A stretch of 20,000 nt of DNA from an uncultured virus (IMG/VR IMGVR_UViG_3300021400_001748) (Duplodnaviria; Heunggongvirae; Uroviricota; Caudoviricetes). The translations under genes were made by a program, and so were the position numbers. Under the pieces are notes generated by a model. The model was given only the letters and a program-made list of their open reading frames with translations. It did not search any database and was not told the DNA's origin. This document shows positions 2-19,691 of this stretch, one piece after another (the stretch's first letter is position 1; every line of letters starts with the position of its first letter). The stretch lies in the IMG/VR virus record IMGVR_UViG_3300021400_001748, one strand, 5' to 3'.

Positions 2-163
2 ACAAACCAGAATGGATACTTTAACGTTGCTGTTGGTATTCAGTATGGTCATGGCACCAGAAATGGTGGATATGTTCAGGGCATAGACTACATTAATCCA
101 GCTATGAGGCCAATATTTGAACAGATAGCAAATGAAATTTGGGCGGAGGTGATTTCGGATTGA
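2..163 (+). CDS. 3' end of HK97 gp10-like neck/tail-completion protein (partial, runs off window start)
   Basis: Frame 2 reads TNQNGYFNVAVGIQYGHGTRNGGYVQGIDYINPAMRPIFEQIANEIWAEVISD* (TGA 161-163). The YGHGTRNGG..YINPA pattern resembles the HK97 gp10 family. The stop overlaps the TTG start of the next gene. Not in the ORF track. Confidence 0.75.
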   Translation, partial: TNQNGYFNVAVGIQYGHGTRNGGYVQGIDYINPAMRPIFEQIANEIWAEVISD

Positions 164-6100: not shown

Positions 6101-6405
6101 AAAATGGGATGTATTCTGCAGGTGCAATGCTTTCATCTGCAGGCAGTGCGTTCGGTGCAGGAGCTTTTTCCTATGCGAGATCCAATTTCCCAGGATCTTA
6201 TAGTTATGGACTTACATCTCAAGGAGCTTCAAACGTAGAAGTTGTGAGAGCTCTTAATGGCGTCAGATCTGATCTTAAGGATCTTGGAAACGCTTTATCG
6301 GCCATGGATATGGTTCTTGATAATGGCGTCCTTGTAGGCCAGATGGGAACCGGTATGGACAGGCAACTTGGAACTATTCAAAAGTTTAAAGAAAGATGGG
6401 CGTAA
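160..6405 (+). CDS. Tail tape measure protein (~2081 aa)
   Basis: Very long Ala/Gly-rich helical ORF with an N-terminal tape-measure domain (DTAYGLDSAAKVASQL...GQGKL...QLESRG), a hydrophobic middle region, internal repeats and a C-terminal NSPSKV motif; lies directly before Dit. Start moved from 139 to TTG 160 because GGAGGTG (145-151) lies 8 nt upstream. Confidence 0.93.
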   Translation: MSNVDERIVEMKFENHLFEKNVNTSIGTLEKLKNALKFNGVDKNLADLDKSVNSMDFSKLAAGVDALNKRFSTMGIVGMTVIQDLTRAAENLAHKMAFGLFNQMKTGGWSRATNIDQAKFQLEGLGVAWNDIVADIEYGVNDTAYGLDSAAKVASQLVASGITIGDNMQAALRGVSGVAAMTNSSYDEIGAIFTTVAGQGKLMTMQLRQLESRGLNVAANLGKASGKLAGKTESEIRDMVTKGKIDFQTFADAMNEVFGPQAKKANETFEGSLANMKSALSRIGAEFATPIRKNMIPIFNKLREIFNDIKKQKLGQVFKDFESFAFKMSKFAYGVLDTLHKNLGFVDTLAGGIHSIWIWFDELMQGVSPVWKFFTKAEEKAEVAATAISKVGLTLEVVEDLAQRVLAGEFGNEQARWDAIDELTGIENAGLAVQNRVNELLNCSKRYSEAAEIVEDSTAKEQEALEKAGESIKDYAEAQDEIQTTAQSMIETLKKAFSEIDQAAIFEWAATVIGGFRAALTILGRTVMAVAAGALEPLIEIGKTIAGVFGKVTATIAEWIMDFSKYMKESGGYAKIQTVTNKVFKTFSSILKGTVKVGSKVFDILGNTIGKVGSIIDQAKFRFQVFMELLKNTEGYKRLTEAFDNIGSKLTELKDNAFSKIQDALNRFMETDVELPKINLMDLANSVSDGIVWMLDKINELKTSILDFYNTNIIGEGGLMEKLQNFFSSENLQAGIQNFIELINEAREAIVKFFTGTSGAEGEAGETTSGLQKFLDDVNRIFEQIKQTVVDLVSGGVEDFNEFVNRIKESIPSLDEVVKKIMHIVGEITAINFIRAVNGIMTSISHISGILRNVKGAIGSFKWFFRSLSLAVSGLALLEIAGAIGILALSFKLLGSLSWDQFKVAAAAIIVITGALAVLFAVIGHFSAGKGGKVIETPLQSLTEMVKTLSSTISKAMKGIGRAATIAAFAYAVKTIYDVIMSVVDMPWYKVKTGLKLVGAILAEIVIAMAALNLLGGHKSTGMQRIGQAVQIVAFAAAIKLIANAIAQIAELDASKAEQGINAIKTISLSLSALMVSSKFSKLSLKPIIGLGLLFAAIAYAFSQMAGMDPDEMKATAGALTSIIGTLSLLVYSLGRMFKSSGSGDIKSTVVSFIALGALLGEMALIFSLMQDMDPLKMAAQADAMAKVLRSLALVMWATSKIGSTGSIGGDIKGAVGTSFSADIILANVTGIMAIAGLINENAPWLKDLMDNGIPLLNKVAEGIGEFFGTLISHALLNPLKDTFGDMGDGITSFMSSLQEFFTGTAQIDTSGLDSVKGVLEVFGSLATAGVLSAVTEWFLGENSMKTFGDQLIDFGQALVVYSAIITSGNGIDEEAVASSARAAQMLSDFANTLPNEGGWLGAIVGENNISEFANQLVGFGTELVKYSAIITSGNGIDEAAVTASARAATMIAEFANKIPNEGGVLSSLTGDNTLAQFAAGLEPFATAMVTYSDIIKNGNIDSAAVENSANAATMISKFARSIPNQGGKIAEWVGDNTLSQFAGELVPFATELVKYSAIITSGKGIDSDAVEASAAAGSILASFADAIPNSGGYLAAWIGDNTLSQFGATLVPFAEDLKSYSEACTGLDMTDAIAATGAISDLVALFNQINAEGGLLGAEQTGSKLSEIEDIVSSLFTNFAWALEDVDDVTSVSDAISNLGKKIGETMSKGLAEGIKSTEGGTDLQDAFSGMIQKMINGADGKAGDLSGLAESIVASLGTIGDAITTSLGADNLSATIVPELTAALTEMFATINSKQPIFRTAGNNLVNALAGGVRQGRSLVTAALQAIGIAGFNAINAYQSRFRTVGRNLAAGLAGGIRQGRNEVVNAARDVVAAANTAAQQTAGENSPSKVWDGFGAYMDEGMANGIRKNVGLIVSAAKGSVNAANKSIEGDLSSGMDRVTDNLYNQLIAVYQYINSVINESTNINPVITPVVDLSQVQNGMYSAGAMLSSAGSAFGAGAFSYARSNFPGSYSYGLTSQGASNVEVVRALNGVRSDLKDLGNALSAMDMVLDNGVLVGQMGTGMDRQLGTIQKFKERWA
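4180..5025 (+). repeat. ~4.3 tandem 64-65 aa repeats inside the tape measure gene
   Basis: Unit G[DE]N..S.F...L..F...LV.YSAIITSG.GID..AV..SA.AA.M...FA..IPN.GG. Exact 36-nt DNA repeat at 4242-4277 and 4437-4472; GATAATACTCTTTCACA at 4765 and 4960. Both pairs are 195 nt apart. Confidence 0.95.
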
Positions 6406-6472: not shown

Positions 6473-7435
6473 ATGAAAGGCAATAATAACTATAATTATT
6501 ACGCGATTCAGTTTATCCCGGATGATAAGGATATTTATACAGCTTCTGCACTTGCTAAAAGTCCGCCTGAACTTCAGTGGAACGGAATAAACACTTGGAA
6601 GTCGTGGCATCTTATTCCTTCGTCTCGTCCGGTTATAAACCCGCCTACAATCAAATCGAATTACATTGACATTCCGGGCGGTAACGGAACTATTGACGCC
6701 AGTACAATTCTTACCCCCTATCCAGTCTATAACGATAGAGAGGGAAGCATTGAATATTATGTCACAAGAAATTATGACTCATATGATTCTTGGACAAAGG
6801 TATATCATAATATATTGAATTATCTTGGCGGAAAGAAGTTCAAAGTGATTCTGGAAGAAGATCCTGCCCATTACTATCGAGGAAGAGTCAATGTAAATCA
6901 ATGGAAATCTGAAAAAGATTGGTCCAAGATAACACTCGACTATCATCTTGAGCCGTTTAAATACGAGGTAGTGTCCTCGACTGACAGGTGGCTTTGGGAT
7001 CCATTTAGTTTTATTGACGGTGTCATAACTCCTGAGGTAAATGGCCGAACAATTTATGACAGATTTGTTATTAACAGTTCGAATCGTGAGCACATCGCCG
7101 TCAGAAACTATAATGACAGTAATCCTATATATGGAGCTAAGATGGAAATTACTCCTGGAACAGCTCCTTTTAGCCCGACTTTTTCTATAAGATGCGACAC
7201 GAATATAGTTTCTGGTAATCATACATGGATGCATGTCCTTCAAGTTAGACAGTATTCAAATCATCTTGAGAAGATTAGTGAAACGGAACTCAAGTTCACC
7301 GACAATACTATGATGACAAAAAGATTCTATGACATGACATTCTACGAAAAAGATTATGATGAATTTATATTCTTCGAGACACCTGCCAATTACCAGTTTA
7401 CGGTAACAGTTAATTTCAGGAGAGGGTGGCTCTAA
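6473..7435 (+). CDS. Distal tail protein (Dit)-like, 320 aa
   Basis: Directly follows the tape measure gene. Motifs YIDIPGGNG.ID, EDP.HYY.GR, ITLDY..EPFKY and WLWDPF are typical of Firmicutes siphophage Dit proteins. Confidence 0.85.
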   Translation: MKGNNNYNYYAIQFIPDDKDIYTASALAKSPPELQWNGINTWKSWHLIPSSRPVINPPTIKSNYIDIPGGNGTIDASTILTPYPVYNDREGSIEYYVTRNYDSYDSWTKVYHNILNYLGGKKFKVILEEDPAHYYRGRVNVNQWKSEKDWSKITLDYHLEPFKYEVVSSTDRWLWDPFSFIDGVITPEVNGRTIYDRFVINSSNREHIAVRNYNDSNPIYGAKMEITPGTAPFSPTFSIRCDTNIVSGNHTWMHVLQVRQYSNHLEKISETELKFTDNTMMTKRFYDMTFYEKDYDEFIFFETPANYQFTVTVNFRRGWL

Positions 7436-8916
7436 TGTATATCATAAAAGCTGGAGACGAAGTCGTTCACAATGGAATGATTAATGATAGAGATTATGTA
7501 GCTCTTTCTGGATCTATGAAAAATGAATTCAATAGAGCTGGAACGTTGTCATTTTCTGTCCCTGCAAATAACTATGCTTCTTCACATAATCTGATTAAGA
7601 AACTGTCCAGTGTCATAAAAGTATTTGACAAGTACGGAAATCTTAAATGGAAAGGAAGAGTTCTTGATACTGCTAAGGATTTCTATGGCCGCATGACGTA
7701 TAACTGTGAAGGATGGATGTCTGTTCTTAACGATTCTATAGTACGTCCTAATGTTGGAGCTGGCGATAAAGATAAAGGCATCATAAAACCTCCTGCTACC
7801 ATAATGCGAGCTCTTATCGATAACCATAATAGCCAGGTAAATAGCTCAAAACAGTTAACATTAAACATGATCGGCATCTCAGCTAGTGTTAATGTAACTC
7901 TTCCATATCCAAATTATGAGACCACTCTTGATTATATTCAGAGTAATTTCCTTTCAAATGAAGATATTGGCGGATTAATGTGGGTTGCAGATAACACGCT
8001 TAATTATTACTCTGACGGTGCTTTTTACAATAGATCGTCAAAGCAGTCGATAGTATTTGGAAGGAATCTACTCGATCTTGTTGATACGAAAGACGCTTCT
8101 GAAGTTTTTACTGTAGTACTTCCAGTTGGAAAAGATGGGCTCCTTTTATCTAGTACAGCAGGATATGATATTTATCCAGCTCCTGGAGAAGCAAATGTAC
8201 CATCAGCAGTAACTAATGCCATTAATACGTTTGGACGAATTGTTAGATATGAAGACTTTTCCGACGTTGAATCTGTTTCTATATTAAAGAATAAAGCGAA
8301 AGATTTGCTACTGAAGAGTATCGAAGAAACTTCTATTATAGAAGCAACAGCATTCGATTTAGGTCTCACAGATCGTGATGCGGGAAGTGTAGATGTTGGA
8401 ACTTACGGCGAAGTACATTCAGTTCCTCACGGATTATCCGAAGCGTATCTTTGCACAGCTGCTGAAATTGACATCTGTAATCCGGCTAACTCTAAATTTA
8501 CGTTTGGAACAAATCCAGATACGTTAACGACAAAGCAGACAAAGCTTGCAAGAAAAGTGAATGCAAATGTCAGGTATACTGAAGAAGTTCAGAGAATTGA
8601 CATGTCATATTCTATATTTGAGGAAACGGTGTCAGTTAACAATATTACATTTTATAGAGCTGGAAGAAATGTCTTCTTATCATTTGCTGTCAAGTTTTTG
8701 AAAGTAGTTCCGAACGACAGGGCATCTATACTCACGTTTAACAATAAATATGCACCTCCTTCAATAGAGGATTCGTACGATGCCGCTACAGATGAAAATA
8801 CGGATTTGACATATAGGATTCGTGTCACTGCTGACGGCAAGATTCAGATCTTTAACAATAGCGAGATTGCAGTAGATCATATAGTAACTGGCGTTGTTAG
8901 TTGGGATTATCAATAA
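7435..8916 (+). CDS. Tal / prophage-tail (baseplate hub) protein with a small C-terminal beta-domain
   Basis: Follows Dit. Motifs AGTLSF..P, W.GRV, CEG....LNDS, FG.NLLD, T.V.P.GKDG and FG.I....F.DV match the prophage tail (endopeptidase-like) family. ATG 7435 overlaps the Dit stop (TAATG); GTG 7426 is an alternative start. Confidence 0.82.
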   Translation: MYIIKAGDEVVHNGMINDRDYVALSGSMKNEFNRAGTLSFSVPANNYASSHNLIKKLSSVIKVFDKYGNLKWKGRVLDTAKDFYGRMTYNCEGWMSVLNDSIVRPNVGAGDKDKGIIKPPATIMRALIDNHNSQVNSSKQLTLNMIGISASVNVTLPYPNYETTLDYIQSNFLSNEDIGGLMWVADNTLNYYSDGAFYNRSSKQSIVFGRNLLDLVDTKDASEVFTVVLPVGKDGLLLSSTAGYDIYPAPGEANVPSAVTNAINTFGRIVRYEDFSDVESVSILKNKAKDLLLKSIEETSIIEATAFDLGLTDRDAGSVDVGTYGEVHSVPHGLSEAYLCTAAEIDICNPANSKFTFGTNPDTLTTKQTKLARKVNANVRYTEEVQRIDMSYSIFEETVSVNNITFYRAGRNVFLSFAVKFLKVVPNDRASILTFNNKYAPPSIEDSYDAATDENTDLTYRIRVTADGKIQIFNNSEIAVDHIVTGVVSWDYQ

Positions 8917-8927
8917 CGGGGTAAACT

Positions 8928-10487
8928 ATGGCAGAATATTACGGAATAGACGTTTCATCAAACAATGGAACTCCTGATTGGTCGAAAGTTTCAGGAGTTT
9001 CTTTTGTTATCATGAGAATTACTCAGAGATACGGAATTGATTCGAAATTTGAGCATAACTACGAAGGAGCTACAGAGGCTGGTCTTAAGCGAGGTGTATA
9101 TAGAGTATCCTATGCTACGAATGCCGAAGAGAGTAAGAAAGAAGCCGAAGATGTAATAAAGACATTATCCGGCAGAAAACTTAACTATCCGATCTTCCTT
9201 GATCTTGAATGGGAAGAACAGATGAAATTCGGCAAAGATAGGCTGGCTGAGATCATCAAGGCTTTCCGTGAAGTAGTTTTAAGTAACAGTTACAAGTTCG
9301 GGATCTACACGAATAAGAACTGGTATGACACTCTGATTTCTGATGAAATTAAATCAAAATGCGAGTTCTGGATTGCTTCTGTTCCGTCTACTGCTAAAGA
9401 CAATGGAACAAAGCAGGAAAGACTTAATCCGGGATTTGGTGTAGGCTGGCAGTATTCATGGGCTGGATCAGTTCCTGGAATCAAAGGAAATGTCGATATG
9501 GATGTTTTCTATAATGACTTTTCAGAAGGGGCAAAGGTGGAAGAACCATTGAGTGTTACAGCAAAAGATGCAATTCAGGTAGCCGAGGGATGGGTCGGCA
9601 GGAAAGAAGCAGACGGATCCCATAGAGCTATTATCGATATTTACAATTCTCATAAGCCTTTAGCAAGAGGCTATAAAGTTAAATATACAGATCAGTGGTG
9701 TGATACATTTATTTCTGCTGTCTATATTAGTCTTTCGGCAGTGGATCTGATCGGTGGCACTGAATGTGGTGTTGAAGAACATGTGAAACTCTTTAAGAAG
9801 GCTGGAATCTGGGTTGAAGATGGCAATACTACTCCTGAAGAAGGATGGCTTATTGTTTTTAACTGGGACGATTCTACGCAGCCTAATGACGGATACTCTG
9901 ATCACATTGGGATCGTTGAGAAAGTATCTGGTAAAACGATCACCACGATTGAAGGCAACTATAAAGATTCTGTAGCAAGAAGAACTCTTCAGGTTGGAAA
10001 CGGCTATATTAGAGGCTATGCAAGACCTAAGTATGCTGCTACAGCTTCTTCTGACATCTCTGAAGTTAAGCCTGAGAAGCCTGCTAGTTCTGGATCATCT
10101 GTTATTTCAGTAATTCCATCCACTTCTCATGCAACTCTGCGACTTAATTCTCCCGAGTATAACGAGATCAAGACGCTGCAGACCTATCTTAATAAGTTTG
10201 GATATGGTCTCGTTGTCGACGGACTCTTTGGCATTAAGACATACCTTGCTGTTCGTGACTTCCAGAAGACTCATGATCTGTTTGTTGACGGCATCTGTGG
10301 TCCTAACACCTGGAAGAAGCTTGATAGTCTCGTTGGAAGTTCAGGTAAGAAGTCTGTAAATGAGATAGCTAAAGAAGTAATAGCAGGCAAATGGGGAAAC
10401 CAGCCAGATCGCGAGAAGAAGCTTAAAGTTGCTGGGTATAATTATGCAGAAGTTCAAAATGCAGTAAATAAATTGCTTAAGAAGTAA
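8928..10487 (+). CDS. Multidomain endolysin: GH25 muramidase + CHAP amidase/peptidase + PG_binding_1 + CW_7
   Basis: GH25: GIDVS..NG, FLDLE, WQYS..G.V.GI.GNVD.D. CHAP: WCD.F.S and DHIGIVE...TIEGN. PG_binding_1: LQ..LN..GY.L.VDG.FG..T..AV..FQ..H.L.VDGICGP.TW. CW_7: EIAKEVIAGKWGN..R...L...GY.Y..VQ..VN. Confidence 0.92.
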   Translation: MAEYYGIDVSSNNGTPDWSKVSGVSFVIMRITQRYGIDSKFEHNYEGATEAGLKRGVYRVSYATNAEESKKEAEDVIKTLSGRKLNYPIFLDLEWEEQMKFGKDRLAEIIKAFREVVLSNSYKFGIYTNKNWYDTLISDEIKSKCEFWIASVPSTAKDNGTKQERLNPGFGVGWQYSWAGSVPGIKGNVDMDVFYNDFSEGAKVEEPLSVTAKDAIQVAEGWVGRKEADGSHRAIIDIYNSHKPLARGYKVKYTDQWCDTFISAVYISLSAVDLIGGTECGVEEHVKLFKKAGIWVEDGNTTPEEGWLIVFNWDDSTQPNDGYSDHIGIVEKVSGKTITTIEGNYKDSVARRTLQVGNGYIRGYARPKYAATASSDISEVKPEKPASSGSSVISVIPSTSHATLRLNSPEYNEIKTLQTYLNKFGYGLVVDGLFGIKTYLAVRDFQKTHDLFVDGICGPNTWKKLDSLVGSSGKKSVNEIAKEVIAGKWGNQPDREKKLKVAGYNYAEVQNAVNKLLKK

Positions 10488-10499
10488 GGAGGTGCAACA

Positions 10500-10991
10500 G
10501 TGGAAGATAGTAGAAACATTATTAAAGCTATTGATGCCTTGACTTTAAAAGTAGGCGGAGAAGTAGTCGATAGTAAAAATATTACCGAAGCTATCGATAA
10601 TTTAAAAGCCGTGTATGATCAGAAAGCTATCAGGATCGATAAGACTTTAACACAGGAAGGTCTTGCTGCTGACGCTAAGGCTGTCGGGGATGTGAGAGAT
10701 AAAATCACAAAATTGTCATATAGTTTTTCTTACAATCAAGTCGTATCAATAACGTCATCGTCAGTAGTTAGCATGTGGTTTGGCAGTTTGATCTCAATTG
10801 GTGAACATCTACTATATGTGTATATTAAAGGCACTACTGCTGTGGTCAATGCAATATGCGGGAGTGCTTCTTCAATAGCTATAGAAAGCTTAGATAACGG
10901 AATATCTATAAAAAATAATGCTGCTGGAACTAGGGGCAGATTAATGATATTCCCAGATGATAAAGAGCTTCTTAATATAACGGTTTTGTAA
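10500..10991 (+). CDS. Hypothetical protein, 163 aa, possible short fibre/accessory structural protein
   Basis: GTG start with AAGGAGGTG RBS. N-terminal duplication DSRNIIKAIDAL/DSKNITEAIDNL, fibre-type motif IDKTLTQEGLAADAKAVG, beta-rich C-terminus. Confidence 0.65.
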   Translation: MEDSRNIIKAIDALTLKVGGEVVDSKNITEAIDNLKAVYDQKAIRIDKTLTQEGLAADAKAVGDVRDKITKLSYSFSYNQVVSITSSSVVSMWFGSLISIGEHLLYVYIKGTTAVVNAICGSASSIAIESLDNGISIKNNAAGTRGRLMIFPDDKELLNITVL

Positions 10992-10997
10992 TTATAT

Positions 10998-11390
10998 ATG
11001 TTTATTTATTTAAACATGAATCCAGAAGCAAAAGAGACATTCGACTGTGTAATCAGAGCTGTCTCTTTTGTTTTGGGATTAGACTGGGATACAACGTTCC
11101 TCTACATAGCTGTCGAGTGTCTAATTCATCATGACATGCCAGAGCAGAACTATATTTGGGCAGGATTACTTAGGAAGATGGGGTTTAAACGTTACATTAT
11201 TCCTGATACCTGCCCTGTTTGCTATACGGTGAAAGATTTCTGCTATGACCATCCTTATGGAACTTATCTTCTTGTGATCATAAGTCATGGAGAAGGCGGT
11301 GGACATGTCGTAGCTGTAGAGGATGGAAATTACTATGATATTTGGGACTCTGGCGATGAAGTACCAACATATTATTGGGTGAAAGCATAA
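10998..11390 (+). CDS. Putative small papain-fold cysteine peptidase, 130 aa
   Basis: NP......DC17VIRA at a helix start, GH103VVAV on a strand and YYD114.WDSG give the Cys-His-Asp order of papain/C39-like peptidases. Extra CPVC motif. No clear SD sequence. Confidence 0.65.
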   Translation: MFIYLNMNPEAKETFDCVIRAVSFVLGLDWDTTFLYIAVECLIHHDMPEQNYIWAGLLRKMGFKRYIIPDTCPVCYTVKDFCYDHPYGTYLLVIISHGEGGGHVVAVEDGNYYDIWDSGDEVPTYYWVKA

Positions 11391-11408: not shown

Positions 11409-11894
11409 ATGTCATATAATTATTCACAGTATCAACCTGGATACTATCAGGGCAATGGAAATGTGTATCCTCAGCAGAATCCGTATTATCAAACTGCTGT
11501 GAATACTCAGCAATATTCCGGCGGTGGAATGCAAACAGCTGCTCCAATGGCTCAAATGCAGCAGCCTATGAGTCAGCAGAGTGCTTCATCTGGAATTAAT
11601 TGGGTTCAGGGTAGAGCAGGTGCAAATTCGTTTTATGTTGCTCCTGGACAGTCGGCTCTTTTGATGGACAGTGAAGATTCTGTTCTCTATGTGAAGTCCG
11701 TTGATATGACTGGAAGACCGATGCCTCTTGAAATCTATGATCTGGTTAAGAGAGACAGCGTTGTCGATGTTCCTCAGATTTCTCAGAGACAAGCTCCAGC
11801 ATCACAGCCTACACCGGATATGAGCCAATATGTAAAGGCTTCTGATCTTGAATCTATGGTCGAGAAGTACGTGAATAAAGCTTTGGAGAAATGA
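11409..11894 (+). CDS. Hypothetical protein, 161 aa, Q/Y/N-rich low-complexity N-terminus plus small beta domain
   Basis: AAGGGAG RBS. The first ~60 aa are Q/Y/N/G/P-rich, followed by INWVQG..GA.SF.VAPG....LMDSE....Y.KS.D..G.P and a short C-terminal helix. Confidence 0.8.
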   Translation: MSYNYSQYQPGYYQGNGNVYPQQNPYYQTAVNTQQYSGGGMQTAAPMAQMQQPMSQQSASSGINWVQGRAGANSFYVAPGQSALLMDSEDSVLYVKSVDMTGRPMPLEIYDLVKRDSVVDVPQISQRQAPASQPTPDMSQYVKASDLESMVEKYVNKALEK

Positions 11895-11970: not shown

Positions 11971-11982
11971 GAGGTGAATAAC

Positions 11983-12210
11983 ATGCCAAATCCCTTATTC
12001 AGTAGATTTGGAGGAGGATCAGGTCCAAAAATGCCTGGTCCTTTTTCTAATTTTATGAACATGATGAGCCAGTTCAAACAGTTCAGAAGTCAGTTTCAAG
12101 GGGATCCTAGGCAGCAAGTTCAGGAGCTTTTGAATTCTGGACAGATGACTCAGGAGCAATTTAATCAGTTAAGTAACATGGCCAACCAATTTAAAGATAT
12201 GCTCGGATGA
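11983..12210 (+). CDS. Hypothetical Met/Gln-rich helical protein, ~75 aa
   Basis: GAGGTG (11971-11976) precedes ATG 11983, a better start than GTG 11974. MPNPLF...FKQF...GDPRQQVQELLNSGQMTQEQFNQL. Confidence 0.8.
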   Translation: MPNPLFSRFGGGSGPKMPGPFSNFMNMMSQFKQFRSQFQGDPRQQVQELLNSGQMTQEQFNQLSNMANQFKDMLG

Positions 12211-12398
12211 TAATGCGTGCTGTCATCTGACATCTTTATGCATGAGTATGCGAACAAAAGGTCATGCTTTTAAGTTTCTTTACAATAGAATATGGAGCTC
12301 GTAGGGCTTGAATTGACTTGCTGCTTGAATTGCATCTTTTAGCCATAACATAAAGTGTTTACAAGTCCGTTTAGCTTTTGATTTATCTAAATTAATTC

Positions 12399-12446
12399 AA
12401 AATGCGAGCCAATTTAAGAGTTTCTAAGTAACTCGTTAAGCGTTTT
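12399..12446 (+). promoter_or_regulatory. Stem-loop immediately upstream of the RBS of the 277-aa gene
   Basis: AAAATGC (12399-12405)/GCGTTTT (12440-12446), TTAA/TTAA and GAGTT (12418-12422)/AACTC (12430-12434) pair up. AAGGAGG follows at 12451. Confidence 0.45.
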
Positions 12447-12467
12447 CTAAAAGGAGGAATATTTAAT

Positions 12468-13301
12468 ATGTCCTTGGTAAACGATGGAGCTGGTAATATG
12501 GTCATGCCTGTAGGTCCTATGGGCGGATATGGAAATGGTAGTCTTGGATGGGGAGGAGATGGATCTTTCTGGATCATTATTCTTTTCCTGTTTGCTATGA
12601 TGAATGGCAACTGGGGCGGCTTTGGAAACAATGGCGGTGGTGCTATGCCGTACATCATGAATAATACCACGAATAGCGACATGCAGAGAGGATTCGATCA
12701 GCAGGCTATTATGGGCGGCATCAACGGAATTAACACTGCTCTTGCCAATGCTGAAGTTTCTAGATGTAATGCTCAGGCTAACATTCTTCAGACACTTAAC
12801 CAGAATCAGACAGCTGCTAATCAGGCAATGAATTCTCTTGCCATGAGTCTTCAGAACTGTTGCTGTGAGAATAGAGCAGGTCTTGCTGATCTTAAGTACA
12901 CTGTTGCTACAGAGGCTTGTGCTGATCGCCAGGCTGTTACGAATGCTCTGTTCGATGTGACTACTGCTAACAACAATAATACGCAGCAGCTCGCGAATGC
13001 AATCAATAACGGTATTCAGTCTATTCAGGATAAGCTTTGCAGTCTTGAGCTTGAAGGTGTTAAGAATCAGCTTGCTCAGGCAAATAGAGAGAATGCAGCT
13101 CTTCAGTCTCAGCTTGCTGTATCTAATCAGAATGCTCTCATTCAGCAGGGATTTGCAAACGAGGTAGACAATCTCTACAATCGTCTGAATAATTGTCCGG
13201 TTCCTACCACTCCTGTTTATGGTCGCACTCCGATCTTTACCTGCAATAACGGCATGAGTGGATGCGGATGTGGCTGTGGCGCTAACGGCTTCGTAGCATA
13301 A
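12468..13301 (+). CDS. Gly/Asn/Cys-rich protein, 277 aa: hydrophobic segment, coiled coil, GCGCGC tail
   Basis: Strong AAGGAGG RBS. Gly-flanked FWIIILFLFAMM segment, long N/Q/A-rich helical region with CCCENR, C-terminal P.P.TP.Y...C..GCGCGC. 11 Cys in total. Confidence 0.85.
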   Translation: MSLVNDGAGNMVMPVGPMGGYGNGSLGWGGDGSFWIIILFLFAMMNGNWGGFGNNGGGAMPYIMNNTTNSDMQRGFDQQAIMGGINGINTALANAEVSRCNAQANILQTLNQNQTAANQAMNSLAMSLQNCCCENRAGLADLKYTVATEACADRQAVTNALFDVTTANNNNTQQLANAINNGIQSIQDKLCSLELEGVKNQLAQANRENAALQSQLAVSNQNALIQQGFANEVDNLYNRLNNCPVPTTPVYGRTPIFTCNNGMSGCGCGCGANGFVA

Positions 13302-13313
13302 GGAGGCGATACT

Positions 13314-13769
13314 ATGGCTGAATTTACTTATAATCCGGTTCAGCTTGTGCAGCCTAATCAGCCCGTTATTCTTAATGATTCAATCAGGTGTAATAAGGGC
13401 TATGTGCTTCACAGAAATGAATCTGGACTTGTAACTCTCCGTGGTATTGTGAATAATCCTTGCTCTTGCTTTGCCAGGTATCAAGTGACATTTAATGCCA
13501 ATATTGCTGTACCTGAAGGCGGAACAGTAGGACCTATTGCCGTCGCTCTTGCTATCGATGGTGAATCTATTCTTACAAGTAGGGCTATTGTAACACCAGC
13601 AGCTGTTGATGACTATTTCAACGTGACTTCTACTGCATTCATTACAGTTCCTGCTGGGTGCTGTATGCATGTTTCTGTGGAGAATGTATCGGTTGGTGCG
13701 ACTCCTGCTGATCCTGCTCCTGCGATCAATGTACAGAATGCGAATCTCGTAGTCACAAGAACAGCTTAA
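13314..13769 (+). CDS. Beta-sandwich protein, 151 aa (BclA-CTD/C1q-like suspected)
   Basis: AAGGAGG RBS. All-beta alternation (YQVTFNANIA, IAVALAIDGE, NVTSTAFITV, VSVEN, NANLVVTR) resembling BclA C-terminal jelly-roll domains; 5 Cys. The fold is inferred. Confidence 0.7.
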   Translation: MAEFTYNPVQLVQPNQPVILNDSIRCNKGYVLHRNESGLVTLRGIVNNPCSCFARYQVTFNANIAVPEGGTVGPIAVALAIDGESILTSRAIVTPAAVDDYFNVTSTAFITVPAGCCMHVSVENVSVGATPADPAPAINVQNANLVVTRTA

Positions 13770-13786: not shown

Positions 13787-14182
13787 ATGAAAGAACTTGA
13801 GAATCTGAAAGAATTATATTTGGATGAAATTAAGGCTATCAACAAAAAGGGAGAACTCACTCCTACTGATGCTGAAGCTGCAAAGAAAGCGCTCGAAGCT
13901 ATCGAAAAGATCAATAAACTTTGCTGTGACGAAGAGTACGAGGACGAAGGATATTCTGAAAGGATGTATCCTCGCTACTCTATGAATCGTTCCTACAGAA
14001 GCATGATGCCTGAGATGAGACCGTATGACTATGATGATCATATGAATCGCACTGGTTATAGTGAAAGAAGAGGCAGAAGTGCTACCACAGGACGTTATAT
14101 TTCAAGACACGCTGGAAGTGATAACGATAACATGGTTATTGATGACATTATCGCTAAGCTTGAGAACATGAAGAACTATTAA
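13787..14182 (+). CDS. Hypothetical protein, 131 aa
   Basis: AAAGGAGG RBS. Helical charged N-terminus, an R/Y/M/D-rich disordered middle and the motif RRGRSATTGRYISR. Confidence 0.8.
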   Translation: MKELENLKELYLDEIKAINKKGELTPTDAEAAKKALEAIEKINKLCCDEEYEDEGYSERMYPRYSMNRSYRSMMPEMRPYDYDDHMNRTGYSERRGRSATTGRYISRHAGSDNDNMVIDDIIAKLENMKNY

Positions 14183-14224: not shown

Positions 14225-14785
14225 ATGTCCATAGATGAAATCTTTTCCAAAATGTCTGAGCATATGGTAAAAGGAATGATGGTTCATGAGCAGCTTATGA
14301 ATTCCTATTTATATTTGGGACTCAAAGGCTATGCTGCTTGTCACGAGTATCATTATCTTGAAGAGACAAAGGGACATATACGGCTTAACACATACAAGAT
14401 TGAACATTATGATTCGCTTGTACTGGGAACGTTTGATAGATCTGATGTTCCTGAAATTGTCCCTAAGTCATGGTTTAACTTCAAGCGGAATACAGTTGAC
14501 ATTAATACTCGTAAACAGGCAATAGCAGCTGCTTATGATGAATGGATTAATTGGGAGACTGAAACTAAAGCTCTATACGAGGAGATCTATTCGGATCTGA
14601 TTAATCAAGGTGAAATCTCTTTATCTGAATTCGTGAAAGAATACATTTTAGACGTTGAGGAAGAGTTGGTTTATGCTAAATCTGAGAGACTCTCTAAATC
14701 ATCTATGGACTTCGACATAGTCTCCATTTTAGAAGAGCAAGAGCAGTATGAACGTTCTTTTAAAAAGAAGATCCGTAAAGGGTAA
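14225..14785 (+). CDS. Ferritin-like four-helix bundle protein, 186 aa
   Basis: GGAGG RBS. Helix A/B pattern H..L...Y..LGL.GYA..H.....EE..H..L..Y and helix C/D pattern W..WE..T..LY......L...G......V......V.EE follow the ferritin superfamily. Confidence 0.7.
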   Translation: MSIDEIFSKMSEHMVKGMMVHEQLMNSYLYLGLKGYAACHEYHYLEETKGHIRLNTYKIEHYDSLVLGTFDRSDVPEIVPKSWFNFKRNTVDINTRKQAIAAAYDEWINWETETKALYEEIYSDLINQGEISLSEFVKEYILDVEEELVYAKSERLSKSSMDFDIVSILEEQEQYERSFKKKIRKG

Positions 14786-14815: not shown

Positions 14816-15163
14816 ATGGAAATTCTGAGTTATATCTCTGCACACTGGATTGAGTGGCTCTTCATGATCGTTACTGCTATCATAGGATTCGGTTATAGAA
14901 CTGTTCTTAAGAGATTGCAAGAAGAAAAGCAGCGAAATGAAGCCATTGCTGAAGGTGTGCAGAGCCTTTTAAGAGAAAGTATTGTAAACAGTTACAACAA
15001 GTATCAGGATAAAGGCTTTTGTCCGATTTATGCGAAAGAAAGTATTCGTAAAGTTTATTTAGCATATCATAACCTTGGCGGAAATGATGTGGCTACAAAT
15101 CTTTACAATAATGTTCTTAACATGAGGGAAGAGCCAGAAGGTAAAGAGAAGAATGAGCAATAA
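14816..15163 (+). CDS. Holin-like/lysis-associated membrane protein, 115 aa
   Basis: One N-terminal TM segment (WIEWLFMIVTAIIGFGY), a coiled coil and a Y..Y..LGGN motif of the type seen next to holins in Firmicutes phages. GGAGG RBS. Confidence 0.65.
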   Translation: MEILSYISAHWIEWLFMIVTAIIGFGYRTVLKRLQEEKQRNEAIAEGVQSLLRESIVNSYNKYQDKGFCPIYAKESIRKVYLAYHNLGGNDVATNLYNNVLNMREEPEGKEKNEQ

Positions 15164-15383
15164 AGTATATGATATTTTAAAATTCATTGCACAGATCGTA
15201 CTGCCTGCCATTGCAACTTTTTATGTGACAATTGCAGGTATCTGGAATCTGCCACTTGGGGATGAAATCAGTCGTACTGTTATGGCCATTGATACTCTTC
15301 TTGGTGCGATTCTTATGATCTCGACTGCTTCGTATAAGAAAGGACTTTTAGAAGAGAAGCCAGAAGTAGAAGCAGAGGAATAA
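15153..15383 (+). CDS. Holin, phage Dp-1 type, 76 aa
   Basis: MSNKVYDILK.IA.IVLPA.ATFY......W.LP...I..T..AIDT.LGA.L.IS is the recognisable Dp-1 holin pattern, with two TM segments and a charged C-terminus. Confidence 0.85.
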   Translation: MSNKVYDILKFIAQIVLPAIATFYVTIAGIWNLPLGDEISRTVMAIDTLLGAILMISTASYKKGLLEEKPEVEAEE

Positions 15384-15507: not shown

Positions 15508-18042
15508 ATGGCAGATATTCAAACTTATTTGCAGCAGATTCTTGATGCTGTATATGGTGAAGAAGTTCGTGGAAGTATTCACGACGCTATATCTCAAATG
15601 AATTCAGATCTAGAAGATGCTATTCGTGATGATTTAAATCCGCTTGCTTTTAAAGGAGATCTTGGAATCAGCGAAGGAAGCAATTACAATTTAAACAATT
15701 TAATTTCAGTGGATCAACGAGGAATTTGGAGGCTTTTGTCTTCTAAAGCGTATGCAGCAGTGCCATCAGATTATGATGGAACTAAAACCGGATATCTATT
15801 AGTTTATACATTCGGCGCTGATAACGTAGCTAGTAACATCAAACAGGAACTTCATTATTTTTCTGATAGCGGTGCAAACGCAAACGTTTATTGGTCTAGG
15901 GTATACTCTACTAATAATGGATGGCAGCCATGGCATAAAAGCGTTGATAATTCATTATCTCTTGAAGGTGCGGCTGCTGATGCTAAAGCTGTTAATACCG
16001 CTATAAATAATTTATTAAATGAGGTGAATACTGCCGAAGATGGTATACTTGGCGGGGATAGACAGTACTTAGATTGGAACGAAAGAGAAGCACACTCAAA
16101 CTATTGGTATGATCAAACTACAAATTCCATTAAGAAAAGTGCCACAACAGATGACTCATTTGGCACTTTTTATCCATTAGTTTTAAATGCTGGTACATAT
16201 TATCTTCATATGATAGCACCAGCATTGTCATATGTGAACACTACAAAAATATCTGAGCACAGCGGATATACCGAAATAAACTCTTATAACGGAACGCTCA
16301 CTCTTTCTGAAAAGTCAACATTATACTTAACAACTTATCATCCTCAGTCAGTAAGATGGAGCTATTCGATGCTGTCTACGTCTTACTTAACCAGCGGCAC
16401 AACATCTTCTAATAACTCATATAGATTCGGATATTACAATGAGTATTTATCTGCAGACAATGCATCTGACAAGTTATATGCAGCTAGAGTGCATAGCGAT
16501 TATGCATATTTTTCATCTCTTAGTCAAAATGCAAAGATTCAGTTTTGCAATTCTAATAAGCGAACAGCTAGCAGCTATTGGAACTACTATGATTCTATTA
16601 TGCACATTGGAACTGCAAATAATTACTGGCGATTTGATCCAATATATCTTCCGAAAGGATCCTATTATGGATACTATATTAGTAACGTATTTTCTGGAAT
16701 AGAAACATATGATAAACAATATACTAAACTTGTAGATTATCCAGGCTTTACAAGTAACGGAAGTAAAAGTACATTAGTACTAAATAATGATGCATTATTG
16801 TATATTACCGGCTTGTCAGAGCAAACCATGATATTTAATTACAATGAAGATGATAACACGTATAAGGACTTCGGTGTTTATGATGGGGACGGTATACATC
16901 ATAGTATATATGTCGGACCAACAAGACAATATACCACTATTATTTCTGCCATTCAGAGTATTCCTAGTGGTACGTGGCTTGGAAATCAGTATGACATATT
17001 TATTGATGACGGTACATATAATGAATACGAAGTTCGACCTGGTGACGGGGTAAATCTTATCGGACTAAGTGGAAACCGTGATTCTGTGAAAATAGTCGGA
17101 AAACTTCCGGCATCATCTGATAATCAGACAATTGAGGGTACGTGTACTGTAGTATTAACAAAGAGCAATGTGCTAAAAAACATTACAGTTACAGCTCAGA
17201 ATATGCGTTATCCTATACACTCTGAATCAGGAGGTATATATAAAAGATGGCGTCAGATATTGGAAAACGTTGCTGTTATACATAAAGGCACAGAAGAAGT
17301 ATCTGATTACAGATCTGAGCATGGGGATAGCTCAGTTGTTTGGACATCAACACATGCCTGGGGTGAAGGAGCTTCTGCAGAATCATATGCGGAATTCAAT
17401 AACTGCTACTTTGAAGGTGGGAATGCTCCATTTTATGTTCACGATTCTACAGCGACAGATAGTAACAAACCGTATTTGCACATTCTTAATAACTGTAAGA
17501 TAGTTAACAATAATCCTGATATGAGTGGCTATTGGAATACTGCTGTCATTATCGATAATAGTACAAATAGGAGCTGCAATAACAATACAGTAGAGATAAA
17601 CAATTGCAATTTTGGTAATGGCTGCGTCAGAATTACGAATACATATCCAATTATTGTAACGATTCATGGATGTAATAATGCTCCGGTTAGAGTTGACCAT
17701 ATAGAAAACGGGTATCCTGAAAGTGATTATGTAACATTAAAAAAGTATATTGGGAGCGCACAGTTACAATCAGGTGACATATTAAAATATGACAAGCATG
17801 TAAATTACGTATCTTTAGCCACAAGTTCTACGCCTATAGAATTAATAGCAGGAATGTATGTCGGAAGTTCAGCTAATACTGGAGATATCGTACAAGTTAT
17901 TTCCGGAACTTATGAAAACATTATACGAGGAGCATCTATCGGCACATTATATTATGCTGATAATAATGGAAAATTAGTTACACAAGGCACTATACCTATA
18001 GCTGTATCAATTGGTGAATTTGCTAAACTGTTAAGTAATTAA
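15508..18042 (+). CDS. Tail spike / receptor-binding protein with pectin-lyase-like beta-helix, 844 aa
   Basis: AAAGGAG RBS. N-terminal anchor I..AVYGEEVRGSIHDAI, a knob-like domain ending WSR.....GWQPW, and a GAAADAKAV linker. Then VGP.RQYTTI.SAI....IFIDDGTYNE...V.LIG followed by N/C-rich beta-helix-type rungs (FNNCYF, LNNCKI, INNCNF). Confidence 0.75.
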   Translation: MADIQTYLQQILDAVYGEEVRGSIHDAISQMNSDLEDAIRDDLNPLAFKGDLGISEGSNYNLNNLISVDQRGIWRLLSSKAYAAVPSDYDGTKTGYLLVYTFGADNVASNIKQELHYFSDSGANANVYWSRVYSTNNGWQPWHKSVDNSLSLEGAAADAKAVNTAINNLLNEVNTAEDGILGGDRQYLDWNEREAHSNYWYDQTTNSIKKSATTDDSFGTFYPLVLNAGTYYLHMIAPALSYVNTTKISEHSGYTEINSYNGTLTLSEKSTLYLTTYHPQSVRWSYSMLSTSYLTSGTTSSNNSYRFGYYNEYLSADNASDKLYAARVHSDYAYFSSLSQNAKIQFCNSNKRTASSYWNYYDSIMHIGTANNYWRFDPIYLPKGSYYGYYISNVFSGIETYDKQYTKLVDYPGFTSNGSKSTLVLNNDALLYITGLSEQTMIFNYNEDDNTYKDFGVYDGDGIHHSIYVGPTRQYTTIISAIQSIPSGTWLGNQYDIFIDDGTYNEYEVRPGDGVNLIGLSGNRDSVKIVGKLPASSDNQTIEGTCTVVLTKSNVLKNITVTAQNMRYPIHSESGGIYKRWRQILENVAVIHKGTEEVSDYRSEHGDSSVVWTSTHAWGEGASAESYAEFNNCYFEGGNAPFYVHDSTATDSNKPYLHILNNCKIVNNNPDMSGYWNTAVIIDNSTNRSCNNNTVEINNCNFGNGCVRITNTYPIIVTIHGCNNAPVRVDHIENGYPESDYVTLKKYIGSAQLQSGDILKYDKHVNYVSLATSSTPIELIAGMYVGSSANTGDIVQVISGTYENIIRGASIGTLYYADNNGKLVTQGTIPIAVSIGEFAKLLSN

Positions 18043-18301: not shown

Positions 18302-18490
18302 ATGAGTAAGTATAGAAAGAAGCCAGTTATTATTGAAGCATATTAAACTGATAAGGAACTTGACATTGAGACATTGGAGGGAAAAATGCATGCAAGCATC
18401 GGTGATTTTATTATCACTGGTGTTAATGGCGAGAAGTATCCATGCAAGCCGGATATTTTTGAGCAGACTTATGAAAAAGTCACCCCTTAA
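18302..18490 (+). pseudogene. KKPV..EA / TLEG / [18 protein letters not shown] small phage protein (PGDYG-like) with one in-frame TAA
   Basis: Reads [61 protein letters not shown]. Internal TAA at 18344-18346; AGGA SD at 18291-18294. Missed by the ORF track. Confidence 0.8.
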
Positions 18491-19691
18491 TCTTTGCCAA
18501 TTCCTTGTGAAGCCAAATGATATTTCTGGCGGTATAGACACGTTCAGTAATGTCCATGATTCTGTGACCAACAATTAATTTGATTGCATACTCATCTACT
18601 CCAGCTTCTTTAGCCATAGTGATGAAATGCTTTCTCCCATCGTGAGGCCTATGATCCGGATTGAGTTTAAGCTCACTTACCAGTTCCTTATATTTTACTT
18701 TCAAGATCTCATAACTTATAGGATACTTCGGTTTAAAGAACAGCTTACTCATTCCGGATTTAATAGCCTCAGTATACCATCTCTGCAGTATTGGTCTGAT
18801 CTTTTCGTGAATTGGCACCTCTCTATTCTTTCCTGCCTCAGTCTTGGATCCGCAGATAATAGACCAGTCTTTCATATTTACTTTCGATACGTCAATATTA
18901 CAAAGCTCATTAGGACGAAGACCTGAGTAGCACTGAAACACTATCATGTCAGTTACCCATGATTCACCTACCTTACTCCAGAGCTTCTTCATCTCTTCAT
19001 CTGTATATTTGATATGAGGCTTAACGGCATCATCATTACCGAACCCAGTCCTGATATCACGAGCGTAATTCCGATCTACGTATCCATACTCAACGGCGTA
19101 GTCCATCATCATTGAGATCGTATACTTTATATTTTTCTTTGTGTTATCTGAAGGGTATAGTGTCTTGTCATTCACCGTCTTATGAGCATCGTCAAGTAGT
19201 CTTCTAAGATCTGGTGTTTTAATTGACTGCACGAGCCTAAAGCCAATAACCTCTTCACAGTACTTCCAGGCTGCTTTAATGGCATCATACCTAGAATTAC
19301 TAACCTCCTGCCTATGAATCTCTACCCATCTCTCATATAGCTCATTCATAGTCATGTCATTGTCAAAGTCATACGGATTAGCATGATATTCTACGAGAGC
19401 TTTATAGGCTTCGTTATAGGTCTTAAAGTATGCTTCAGGCTTAAGTAGTTTCCCGATCGGATGCCCAAACTCATCTTTTCCAACAGACACCATGACTCTG
19501 AAAGGTTTACGGCGCTTCTTATCTGTGAGTTCAGTAATCCTGCCGAAACCATTAGGAAGTCTCATATGAGTAGTACGCTTCTTTTTAGGCGAGTCTTTTG
19601 GCTTGGCGAGCGATAGTGGCATACCACAGTTAGGACAAGAGATGGCTTTATCTGATACGTCATGACCACACTCTGGACATTTGATGAGCAT
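18480..19691 (-). CDS. int: Tyrosine integrase with N-terminal zinc ribbon, 403 aa
   Basis: Catalytic set SGLR, SKT.AG, HDGR, VGH and VYT; arm-binding-like RLPNGFG.I; N-terminal CPECG...CPNCG. AAGGAG RBS on the - strand at 19701-19706. Confidence 0.93.

Follow-up and report, generated by a model that had tools for sequence, protein, structure and literature searches.

A stretch of 20,000 nucleotides (nt) from an uncultured virus of the Caudoviricetes (IMG/VR record IMGVR_UViG_3300021400_001748), referred to here as a whole as the window, carries two adjacent genes for proteins of 277 and 151 amino acids (aa). It may be asked what these two proteins, one long, predicted to be helical and rich in cysteine, the other short and all-beta, make together. 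An earlier note on this DNA, written from the letters alone, had proposed a trimeric stalk with a trimeric head or a pilin-like precursor with a cleaved Gly-rich leader. We find that the pair belongs to a cassette that is real and widespread, the core of which is a rod together with a knob of the BclA_C type. Sequence comparison puts the pair at the core of a block of six genes, encoding proteins of 130, 161, 78, 277, 151 and 131 aa.

Both open reading frames (ORFs) begin with ATG and lie on the plus strand, the 277-aa gene (phrog_16490) at 12468..13301 and the 151-aa gene (phrog_20016) at 13314..13769. The former is preceded by an AAGGAGG ribosome-binding site (12451..12457) with a 10-nt spacer to the ATG at 12468, the latter by a GGAGG site (13302..13306) that abuts the stop codon of the 277-aa gene. 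Read again in the sequence, the two frames, the 12-nt spacing and the AAGGAGG site were all as the earlier note had given them, and so were the motifs quoted there: GGYGNGSLGWGGDG, SFWIIILFLFAMM, NGNWGGFGNNGGG, CCCENR (aa 131-136) and PVPTTPVY...C...GCGCGCG in the larger protein, and PCSC plus GCC in the smaller. Each product matched its PHROG family strongly (E = 1.5e-35 for the 277-aa and 8.2e-42 for the 151-aa protein), both families being labelled 'unknown function', and in the homologue searches E ≤ 1e-3 was reached by all 8000 scored candidate clusters for the former and by 7960 of 8000 for the latter. These matches and the thousands of homologue clusters show that both ORFs are real, conserved genes and did not arise by chance. 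The 151-aa family alone comprised 571 clusters at 50% identity (E ≤ 1e-3). None of the clusters scored for either protein carried a Pfam domain, and the rare names were all 'hypothetical protein'.

The two genes are rarely parted. We compared 82 phage loci by tblastn: those of Butyrivibrio phage Ceridwen and Dulem virus 33, and 80 on viral contigs that a search with the 151-aa protein had brought up. The 277-aa gene lay directly 5' of the 151-aa gene in 80 of them, and the remaining two end at a contig edge. On genome contigs the same order was found at 16 of 19 loci, two of the other three being cut by the contig end. Of 73 pairs, 61 have a gap of 1-19 nt between the genes; the negative gaps of the other 12 are an artefact of ORF extension. 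The earlier treatment of the pair as a unit was therefore sound with respect to obligate neighbourhood, but it missed that the unit is part of a six-gene cassette, apparently a portable one.

The smaller protein can be placed with some precision. From an alignment of 71 sequences AlphaFold2 (AF2) produced an all-beta model of 11 strands, with a predicted local distance difference test score (pLDDT) of 97 and a predicted template modelling score (pTM) of 0.89. The earlier note had compared this protein with the C-terminal domain (CTD) of BclA and with C1q and TNF. In a Foldseek search of the PDB with the model, ExsF (9H3D), ExsFA (7R1M), BxpB (8D02), F-BclA-CTD (9H38) and BclA-CTD ranked at the top (E = 1.5e-6 to 1e-4, probability 1.00), and members of the TNF and C1q families ranked next. 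Superposition with VIA-align gave Z = 17.2 and a root-mean-square deviation (rmsd) of 1.9 Å over 125 residues for F-BclA and Z = 15.2-15.3 for BclA, the two together spanning an rmsd of 1.9-2.1 Å over 123-125 residues. BxpB and ExsF (8D02, 9H3D) followed with Z = 14.8-14.9 over 130 residues, within a range of 14.0-14.9 for the ExsF/ExsFA/BxpB group, and EDA and C1q domains scored Z = 12-14.

The 151-aa protein of the window itself had no Pfam match at E ≤ 1 and hence falls below the BclA_C (PF18573) threshold. Five of its 71 aligned relatives match BclA_C directly, the best at E = 9e-5, and a profile-profile comparison (hhalign) of the whole alignment with 10 BclA_C domains, taken from Clostridia genomes and all above the Pfam cut-off, gave 95.5% probability (E = 1.4e-8, 124 columns). 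The model, Foldseek, VIA-align and hhalign thus agree on a jelly roll of the BclA-CTD/C1q/TNF type, and because the fold searches and the profile comparison point the same way, 'BclA-CTD-like' is correct both as a description of the fold and as a statement of remote homology. We conclude that the 151-aa protein, though it stands alone, is remotely homologous to the C-terminal domain of BclA. Comparable stand-alone proteins of 130-145 aa from gut phages are present in BFVD. Four cysteines (Cys26, Cys50, Cys116 and Cys117) recur in 76-83% of the 71 aligned sequences and Cys52 is unconserved; inspection by eye revealed no obvious signal peptide.

The 277-aa protein can be divided into four parts. 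The N-terminal tail (aa 1-33, 12468..12566) has an acidic start and an M-P-V-x-P-M peptide, is rich in Gly and aromatic residues and contains neither Lys nor Arg. It is followed by a hydrophobic core, FWIIILFLFAMM (aa 34-45, 12567..12602), recognised by its Kyte-Doolittle values and flanked on both sides by Gly-rich sequence. A predicted helical region (aa 79-131 and 144-242, 12702..13193) is broken by a conserved CCCENR...ADLKYTVATEACADR block, and the C-terminal tail (13194..13301, stop codon included) is rich in Pro and Cys, running from CPVPTTPVYGRTPIFTC to GCGCGCG. The secondary structure of the low-confidence AF2 model (pLDDT 47), with helices at 33-45, 79-131 and 144-242 and some 165 helical residues after the core, bears out that the protein is mostly helical. 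The earlier description of about 170 aa as heptad-like was too strong, because hydrophobicity averaged over the alignment has a periodicity of 3.5 at aa 190-242 only. At aa 76-200 the periodicity is 3.6-3.7. Canonical heptads are thus confined to the last 50 or so helical residues, and the protein is best modelled as a long amphipathic helical rod, part of it probably canonical coiled coil.

Conservation is concentrated at a limited set of positions. Among 69 diverse homologues P17, W35, G75-F76, C100, C131-C133, N135-R136, E149 and R154 are conserved in at least 90%, as are C191, P244, P246, C259 and G265-C-G-C268 in the C-terminal half; C151 is conserved too, and cysteines are among the best-conserved positions of the protein. 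Near the N-terminus M13, P14, V15 and P17 were invariant in 55 sequences. The motif MPVxP[M/L] occurred in 40 of 73 homologues, the rest having MLVxP or PADxA variants. The C-terminal tail exists in two Pro-rich types, T1 (43 of 72) and T2 (29 of 72), both of which end in GCGC-like repeats.

The hydrophobic core was 10-13 residues long in 66 of 69 homologues, with a Gly fraction of about 0.3 on either side. Its Kyte-Doolittle maximum in the window is 2.9 with an 11-residue and 1.54 with a 19-residue frame. Lys and Arg are absent from the N-terminal flank of about 33 residues in 67 of the 69 homologues, and from the 30 residues after the core in 47. We regard a transmembrane (TM) anchor as plausible and go no further, because the core is short and oddly charged. 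Type IV pilin precursors have a short basic leader ending in Gly, a hydrophobic helix and a Glu at +5. In the 277-aa protein a G|F...E5 prepilin motif is missing, the leader is acidic and about 33 aa long, Glu does not occur in the core, and pilin families were absent from the Pfam and NCBIfam matches; the pilin-like precursor of the earlier note gains no support. Just past the Gly-rich region, at aa 60-65 (12645-12662), a methionine is widely conserved, in the context AMPYIM here and YPWMNQ in many homologues, and one database protein (P0391) begins exactly at this methionine. A second start yielding an anchor-less rod is conceivable.

How far does the association extend beyond the pair? When the genes of the window were searched against the 82 loci, the 277-aa protein matched 80, the 130-aa protein 72, the 161-aa protein 64 and the 78-aa protein 44. 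Of the genes outside the cassette, the lysin matched 17 loci, Tal two and Dit none. A plus-strand ORF comes right after the 151-aa gene in 76 loci, and in 72 of these it belonged to the 131-aa family (iterated hidden Markov model search, E ≤ 1e-3). The position of the block varies. In the window it lies between lysin and holin; in six loci scanned in full, holin and endolysin were upstream and integrase or replication genes downstream. In 37 further loci the two ORFs on either side were scanned, and the 25 of 147 proteins with a PHROG match included endolysins (4 loci), HNH or other endonucleases (6 loci), tail fibre or spike proteins (3 loci), helicases (2 loci), integrases (2 loci) and a head morphogenesis protein (1 locus). 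The last, at L069:2390-3082, is a MuF-like protein immediately upstream of the cassette, so that the cassette can evidently lie inside a head module. An endonuclease was found no more than two ORFs from the cassette in loci L007, L033, L045, L052, L067 and L074, and one is also present at L065, L082 and in Dulem virus 33. These neighbours suggest that the cassette spread by homing. Since its position is labile and homing endonucleases are frequent beside it, the cassette can be regarded as portable cargo. It is found independently of virion type, between unrelated flanking genes, in siphophages and in prophages of Clostridia from rumen and gut.

The closest named carriers are rumen metagenome-assembled genomes, mostly of Lachnospiraceae (Lachnospiraceae at 9, Ruminococcus at 3 and Butyricicoccus at 1 of the 19 loci). 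Three of the 19 bear Bacteroidales-type labels, which may be binning errors. A cultured carrier also exists, Butyrivibrio phage Ceridwen, whose knob is 75% identical to that of the window and whose pair carries the accessions QHJ73768.1 and QHJ73769.1. The passages on Ceridwen in PMC7372960 report lytic growth as the only growth seen, and contain neither proteomics nor a comment on the cassette genes. Because the cassette is present in a phage that grows lytically, it is not purely a function of lysogenic conversion.

What the pair does is harder to say than what it is. The reading we prefer, tentatively and with somewhat less than even confidence, is that rod and knob form a self-anchored complex made late in infection, within a portable cassette. 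To our knowledge all solved BclA-C, ExsF and C1q domains are trimers and, because these solved relatives are trimeric, the 151-aa protein would be expected to form a trimer as well. The knob trimer would dock on one end of the 277-aa rod, as the conserved Pro-rich peptides at both ends of the rod and the precedent of ExsF suggest, and one of these terminal peptides would probably lie in the clefts between knob subunits as the leader does in ExsF. The rod may be held together through its cysteines, by metal binding more probably than by disulfides because the rumen is reducing. Its hydrophobic N-terminus would anchor the complex in the host membrane and not at a site on the virion, since an attachment site on the virion would be lost whenever the cassette moved to a phage with an unrelated tail; self-anchoring in the host membrane would explain how the cassette moves among phages whose tails have nothing in common. 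Made late, along with the lysis genes, the complex would act at the envelope of the host cell, when the cell lyses or later.

Several observations weigh against such a complex. A standard single-pass anchor is a hydrophobic helix of some 18-20 residues with flanking positive charge; the core of the rod is short for a membrane helix, reaches a maximum of only 1.54 over 19 residues and has no positive charge beside it. The AF2 monomer of the rod, at pLDDT 47, could be used for secondary structure only. The end types of the rod follow the knob only weakly: on the tree of the 151-aa protein the N-terminal type changed 13 times where shuffling gave 18.7 on average, the C-terminal tail type 18 times where it gave 22.7, and no column of the 151-aa alignment clearly tracked the tail type of the rod. 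Fused forms of the knob domain, sought among 2368 longer candidates, numbered two, both of which resemble deletion chimeras. Finally, a role in the virion retains some credit because the cassette has tail and lysis genes around it on the late strand.

A bolder version of the anchored complex, which we consider doubtful, takes in the whole cassette. It would be a self-contained kit for an anchored fibre in the style of the exosporium, used outside spores: a trimer homologous to BclA_C would clamp the Pro-rich ends of a rod stapled by cysteines or metal, a Gly-flanked mini-anchor would hold the rod in the membrane, a new Cys-His-Asp enzyme would see to its maturation, and three low-complexity proteins would embed the structure.

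A serious rival, to which we give a smaller but substantial share of belief, is that the pair is a virion fibre: a trimeric 277-aa shaft with a distal 151-aa knob, set on tail or head as an accessory adhesin, with the other cassette proteins as assembly helpers. Knobs of the TNF/C1q type terminate many phage fibres. BFVD contains collagen-repeat, pectate-lyase, YadA-like and fibritin-annotated proteins with the domain at one end, and the PDB matches include the short tail fibre of cyanophage A-1(L) and the A4 portal-tail complex. The setting also fits, in that the cassette is on the late strand, in a run from tail-associated genes to holin, has tail fibre genes as neighbours in 3 of 37 loci and is found in a lytic phage. 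Against a fibre, the cassette moves among phages with tail genes that did not match those of the window (Dit in 0 and Tal in 2 of 82 loci). The position of the cassette is variable, library scans of the window proteins brought up no domain resembling a virion adaptor, and it is hard to see where in a soluble fibre a hydrophobic core flanked by Gly would fit. Of the cassette proteins the knob was the most conserved in the loci compared, with an identity of 69-86% as against 29-67% for the rod, the opposite of what is typical of a receptor-binding tip, in a comparison biased by the use of the knob as the query with which the loci were retrieved.

Weaker than the virion fibre is the suggestion that rod, knob and the three low-complexity proteins form a coat or matrix, cross-linked through cysteines or by a transglutaminase-like 130-aa enzyme, as an analogue of exosporium or spore coat that has nothing to do with spores. 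GerQ/Tgl and ExsY are the systems with which it would be compared. The nearest structural relatives of the knob are exosporium proteins, the rod cysteines are highly conserved, three of the six cassette proteins are of low complexity, and Cys, His and Asp residues plus a CPxC are invariant in the 130-aa protein, all of which would suit a matrix. Apart from BclA_C, however, the sequences gave no link to coat, exosporium or transglutaminase families. The cultured host of the only isolated carrier is a Butyrivibrio, which is not known to form spores, and the strongly reducing rumen is unfavourable to lattices built on disulfides. We think a matrix improbable.

It is improbable too, and a shade more so in our judgement, that the two proteins do not bind one another at all and are adjacent because they are co-regulated within a cargo operon, each acting alone. 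The missing covariation signal between rod ends and knob and the lack of natural fusions are what such independence would predict. Against this, the near-obligate adjacency with a gap of 1-19 nt persists over highly mosaic phages, and tight conserved spacing is typical of subunits made in fixed proportion. Least probable of all is that the 277-aa protein is a precursor whose Gly-rich leader is cut by a cysteine peptidase of the cassette, of the double-glycine/C39 type or pilin-like, to give the mature rod: a small protein with conserved Cys, His and Asp is indeed part of the cassette, Gly-Gly pairs are numerous in the rod, the N-terminal peptide of which is conserved, and BclA's own N-terminus is described as cleaved before anchoring (PMC12357932), but none of 35 members of the 130-aa family matched a peptidase Pfam family at E ≤ 1, hhalign against C39 gave 0.3%, and neither a prepilin motif nor a cleavage site could be made out.

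The four other genes of the cassette are all on the plus strand. The first (10998..11390; phrog_3754, E = 4.7e-20) encodes a small 130-aa predicted Cys-His-Asp enzyme with an invariant CPxC. Residues D16, C17, R20, C72, C75, H103 and D114 are invariant in 35 sequences of the family, which had no Pfam or PDB sequence match. A C39 leader peptidase was considered for this protein and rejected at the level of sequence, as hhalign against 10 Peptidase_C39 domains gave 0.3% and there was no Pfam match. Its invariant TCPxCYT motif aligns locally with the active-site segment of glutaredoxin; the alignment is not significant (E = 0.13) and was set aside. A redox or metal site in the 130-aa protein is possible.

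The next gene (11409..11894; phrog_21718), known from its PHROG match and alignment, encodes 161 aa with a Q/Y/P-rich N-terminus, a GIxWVQG...DSE...KSxD core and a C-terminal helix. It is followed by the gene for a Q/N-rich helical protein of 78 aa (11974..12210; phrog_22984), similarly identified. The sixth gene (13787..14182), found by family search, specifies a 131-aa protein with an N-terminal helix, a middle part of low complexity rich in G, S, Y and R, and a C-terminal helix. These three are low-complexity proteins with short conserved cores and belong to no known family; in particular, no PDB or Pfam family was found for the 161-aa protein and no PDB family for the 78-aa protein. PDB searches by sequence and by profile with five cassette alignments yielded nothing significant, and NCBIfam yielded nothing for the cassette proteins at E ≤ 1. 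Among the PADLOC defence models the only match was a weak coiled-coil one between the rod and the tail of ZorA (E = 8.9e-4), the other cassette proteins having none.

Taken as a whole, the window covers the late part of a prophage-like element, with every gene up to 18042 on the plus strand. The first genes are those for a tape-measure protein of 2088 aa (139-6405), a Dit-like protein (6473-7435) and a tail protein (7426-8916). A lysin of four domains, GH25, CHAP, PG_binding_1 and CW_7 (8928-10487), comes next, then a run of small genes, a Dp-1-type holin (15153-15383) and an 844-aa protein (15508-18042). From its genes, including that for the tape-measure protein, the phage is of siphovirus type. 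Lysin and holin are about 4.7 kb apart with the cassette inside that stretch, so the lysis module of the window is divided by cargo. A 163-aa protein encoded just after the lysin (10500-10991) and the 844-aa protein have in common a short motif, L(T/S)xEG(L/A)AADAKAV, with 11 of 17 residues identical (E = 0.001 for a single comparison). The middle of the 844-aa protein resembles a stretch that in Lactobacillus phage Bassarid bears a tail-fibre annotation (29.6% identity, E = 4e-9), so that a tail-fibre-like gene seems to lie 3' of the holin, interleaved with the lysis genes. Directly after the 131-aa gene is one for a helical, His/Glu/Tyr-rich protein of 186 aa (14225-14785), which is present in 5 of the 82 loci and had no family match. 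A tyrosine integrase on the minus strand (18480-19691) has an N-terminal zinc-ribbon domain (Zn_ribbon_3, E = 6.2e-8).

As the earlier note had it, the 277-aa gene is preceded by an intergenic region of 257 nt (12211..12467), the 78-aa gene ending at 12210. A structured RNA leader in this gap of the window was ruled out, since the folding z-score against shuffles was -0.05, there was no Rfam match, and blastn against the corresponding upstream sequences at 71 related loci found nothing similar. The gap holds no convincing ORF and no detectable RNA element. A weak terminator-like hairpin is present at 12203-12230, and promoter and terminator scans gave the same counts as shuffled sequences. In the earlier proposal the strong ribosome-binding site would make the 277-aa protein the abundant product. 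In a metatranscriptome of the sample from which the DNA probably came, 17 small contigs fall on the window. Among the eight listed, three lie on the 277-aa gene, one on the 131-aa gene, one on the 186-aa gene and three on tail genes; none of the eight touches the integrase region or the 151-aa gene, and a lack of cover has no evidential value. Such contigs cannot rank genes by expression, and DNA carry-over is possible.

For each protein of the pair, homologue clusters from metagenomes of gut and rumen number in the thousands, and the cassette is common to otherwise unrelated phages, all under the name 'hypothetical'. No description was found in the literature searched for these PHROG identifiers and for BclA or C1q domains in gut phages. 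If the ExsF/BclA-style anchoring complex is true, an architecture of spore surfaces would have a far wider use outside spores, and there would be a handle on a very common phage function in the Lachnospiraceae, which are key fibre degraders. If the self-contained kit is true, phages would build an envelope structure of a class not yet described, one that acts when the cell lyses or later and passes horizontally among many gut and rumen phages. With Ceridwen as a cultured carrier the question is directly testable.

Several known systems resemble parts of the cassette. In the 130-aa protein the invariant Cys, His and Asp come in the order known from the C39 peptidases, yet there is no similarity of sequence or profile, and its invariant CPxC is absent from C39 domains. 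The exosporium leader (TIGR03720) gave no NCBIfam match to the 277-aa protein at E ≤ 1; what resembles it is the Pro-rich composition of both 277-aa termini and nothing else. No link of the cassette to spores was found. A helical rod with a TNF-like knob is also known from phage in the Sf6-type knob on the P22-like gp26 needle (Phage_tail_NK). That needle is a single polypeptide of podophages, and its likeness to the pair, an Atlas lead (0.89), is taken as a lead only.

The closest relationships are with the exosporium. The 151-aa protein has the same jelly roll as the C-terminal domains of BclA and F-BclA (PF18573; 1WCK, 9H38) and is remotely homologous to them. BclA_C closes a collagen-like stalk at its C-terminus within a single chain, and the reading frames around the 10 aligned domains are 232-783 aa long, whereas the phage domain stands alone at 151 aa beside a helical, non-collagen partner. 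In this respect it is more like ExsF, ExsFA and BxpB (9H3D, 7R1M, 8D02), which are stand-alone TNF-like proteins of about 150-170 aa. The ExsF trimer is described as holding three Pro-rich N-terminal F-Anchor peptides in its inter-subunit clefts, with BclA, whose N-terminus is cleaved before anchoring, included by similarity (PMC12357932). The 277-aa protein differs from the partner of ExsF in being predicted helical and non-collagenous, with a hydrophobic core and many cysteines. Even so, ExsF with its F-Anchor or BclA leader would be the closest solved analogy for the working of the pair, which would take its place among fibres with a TNF/C1q knob or ExsF-type anchors.

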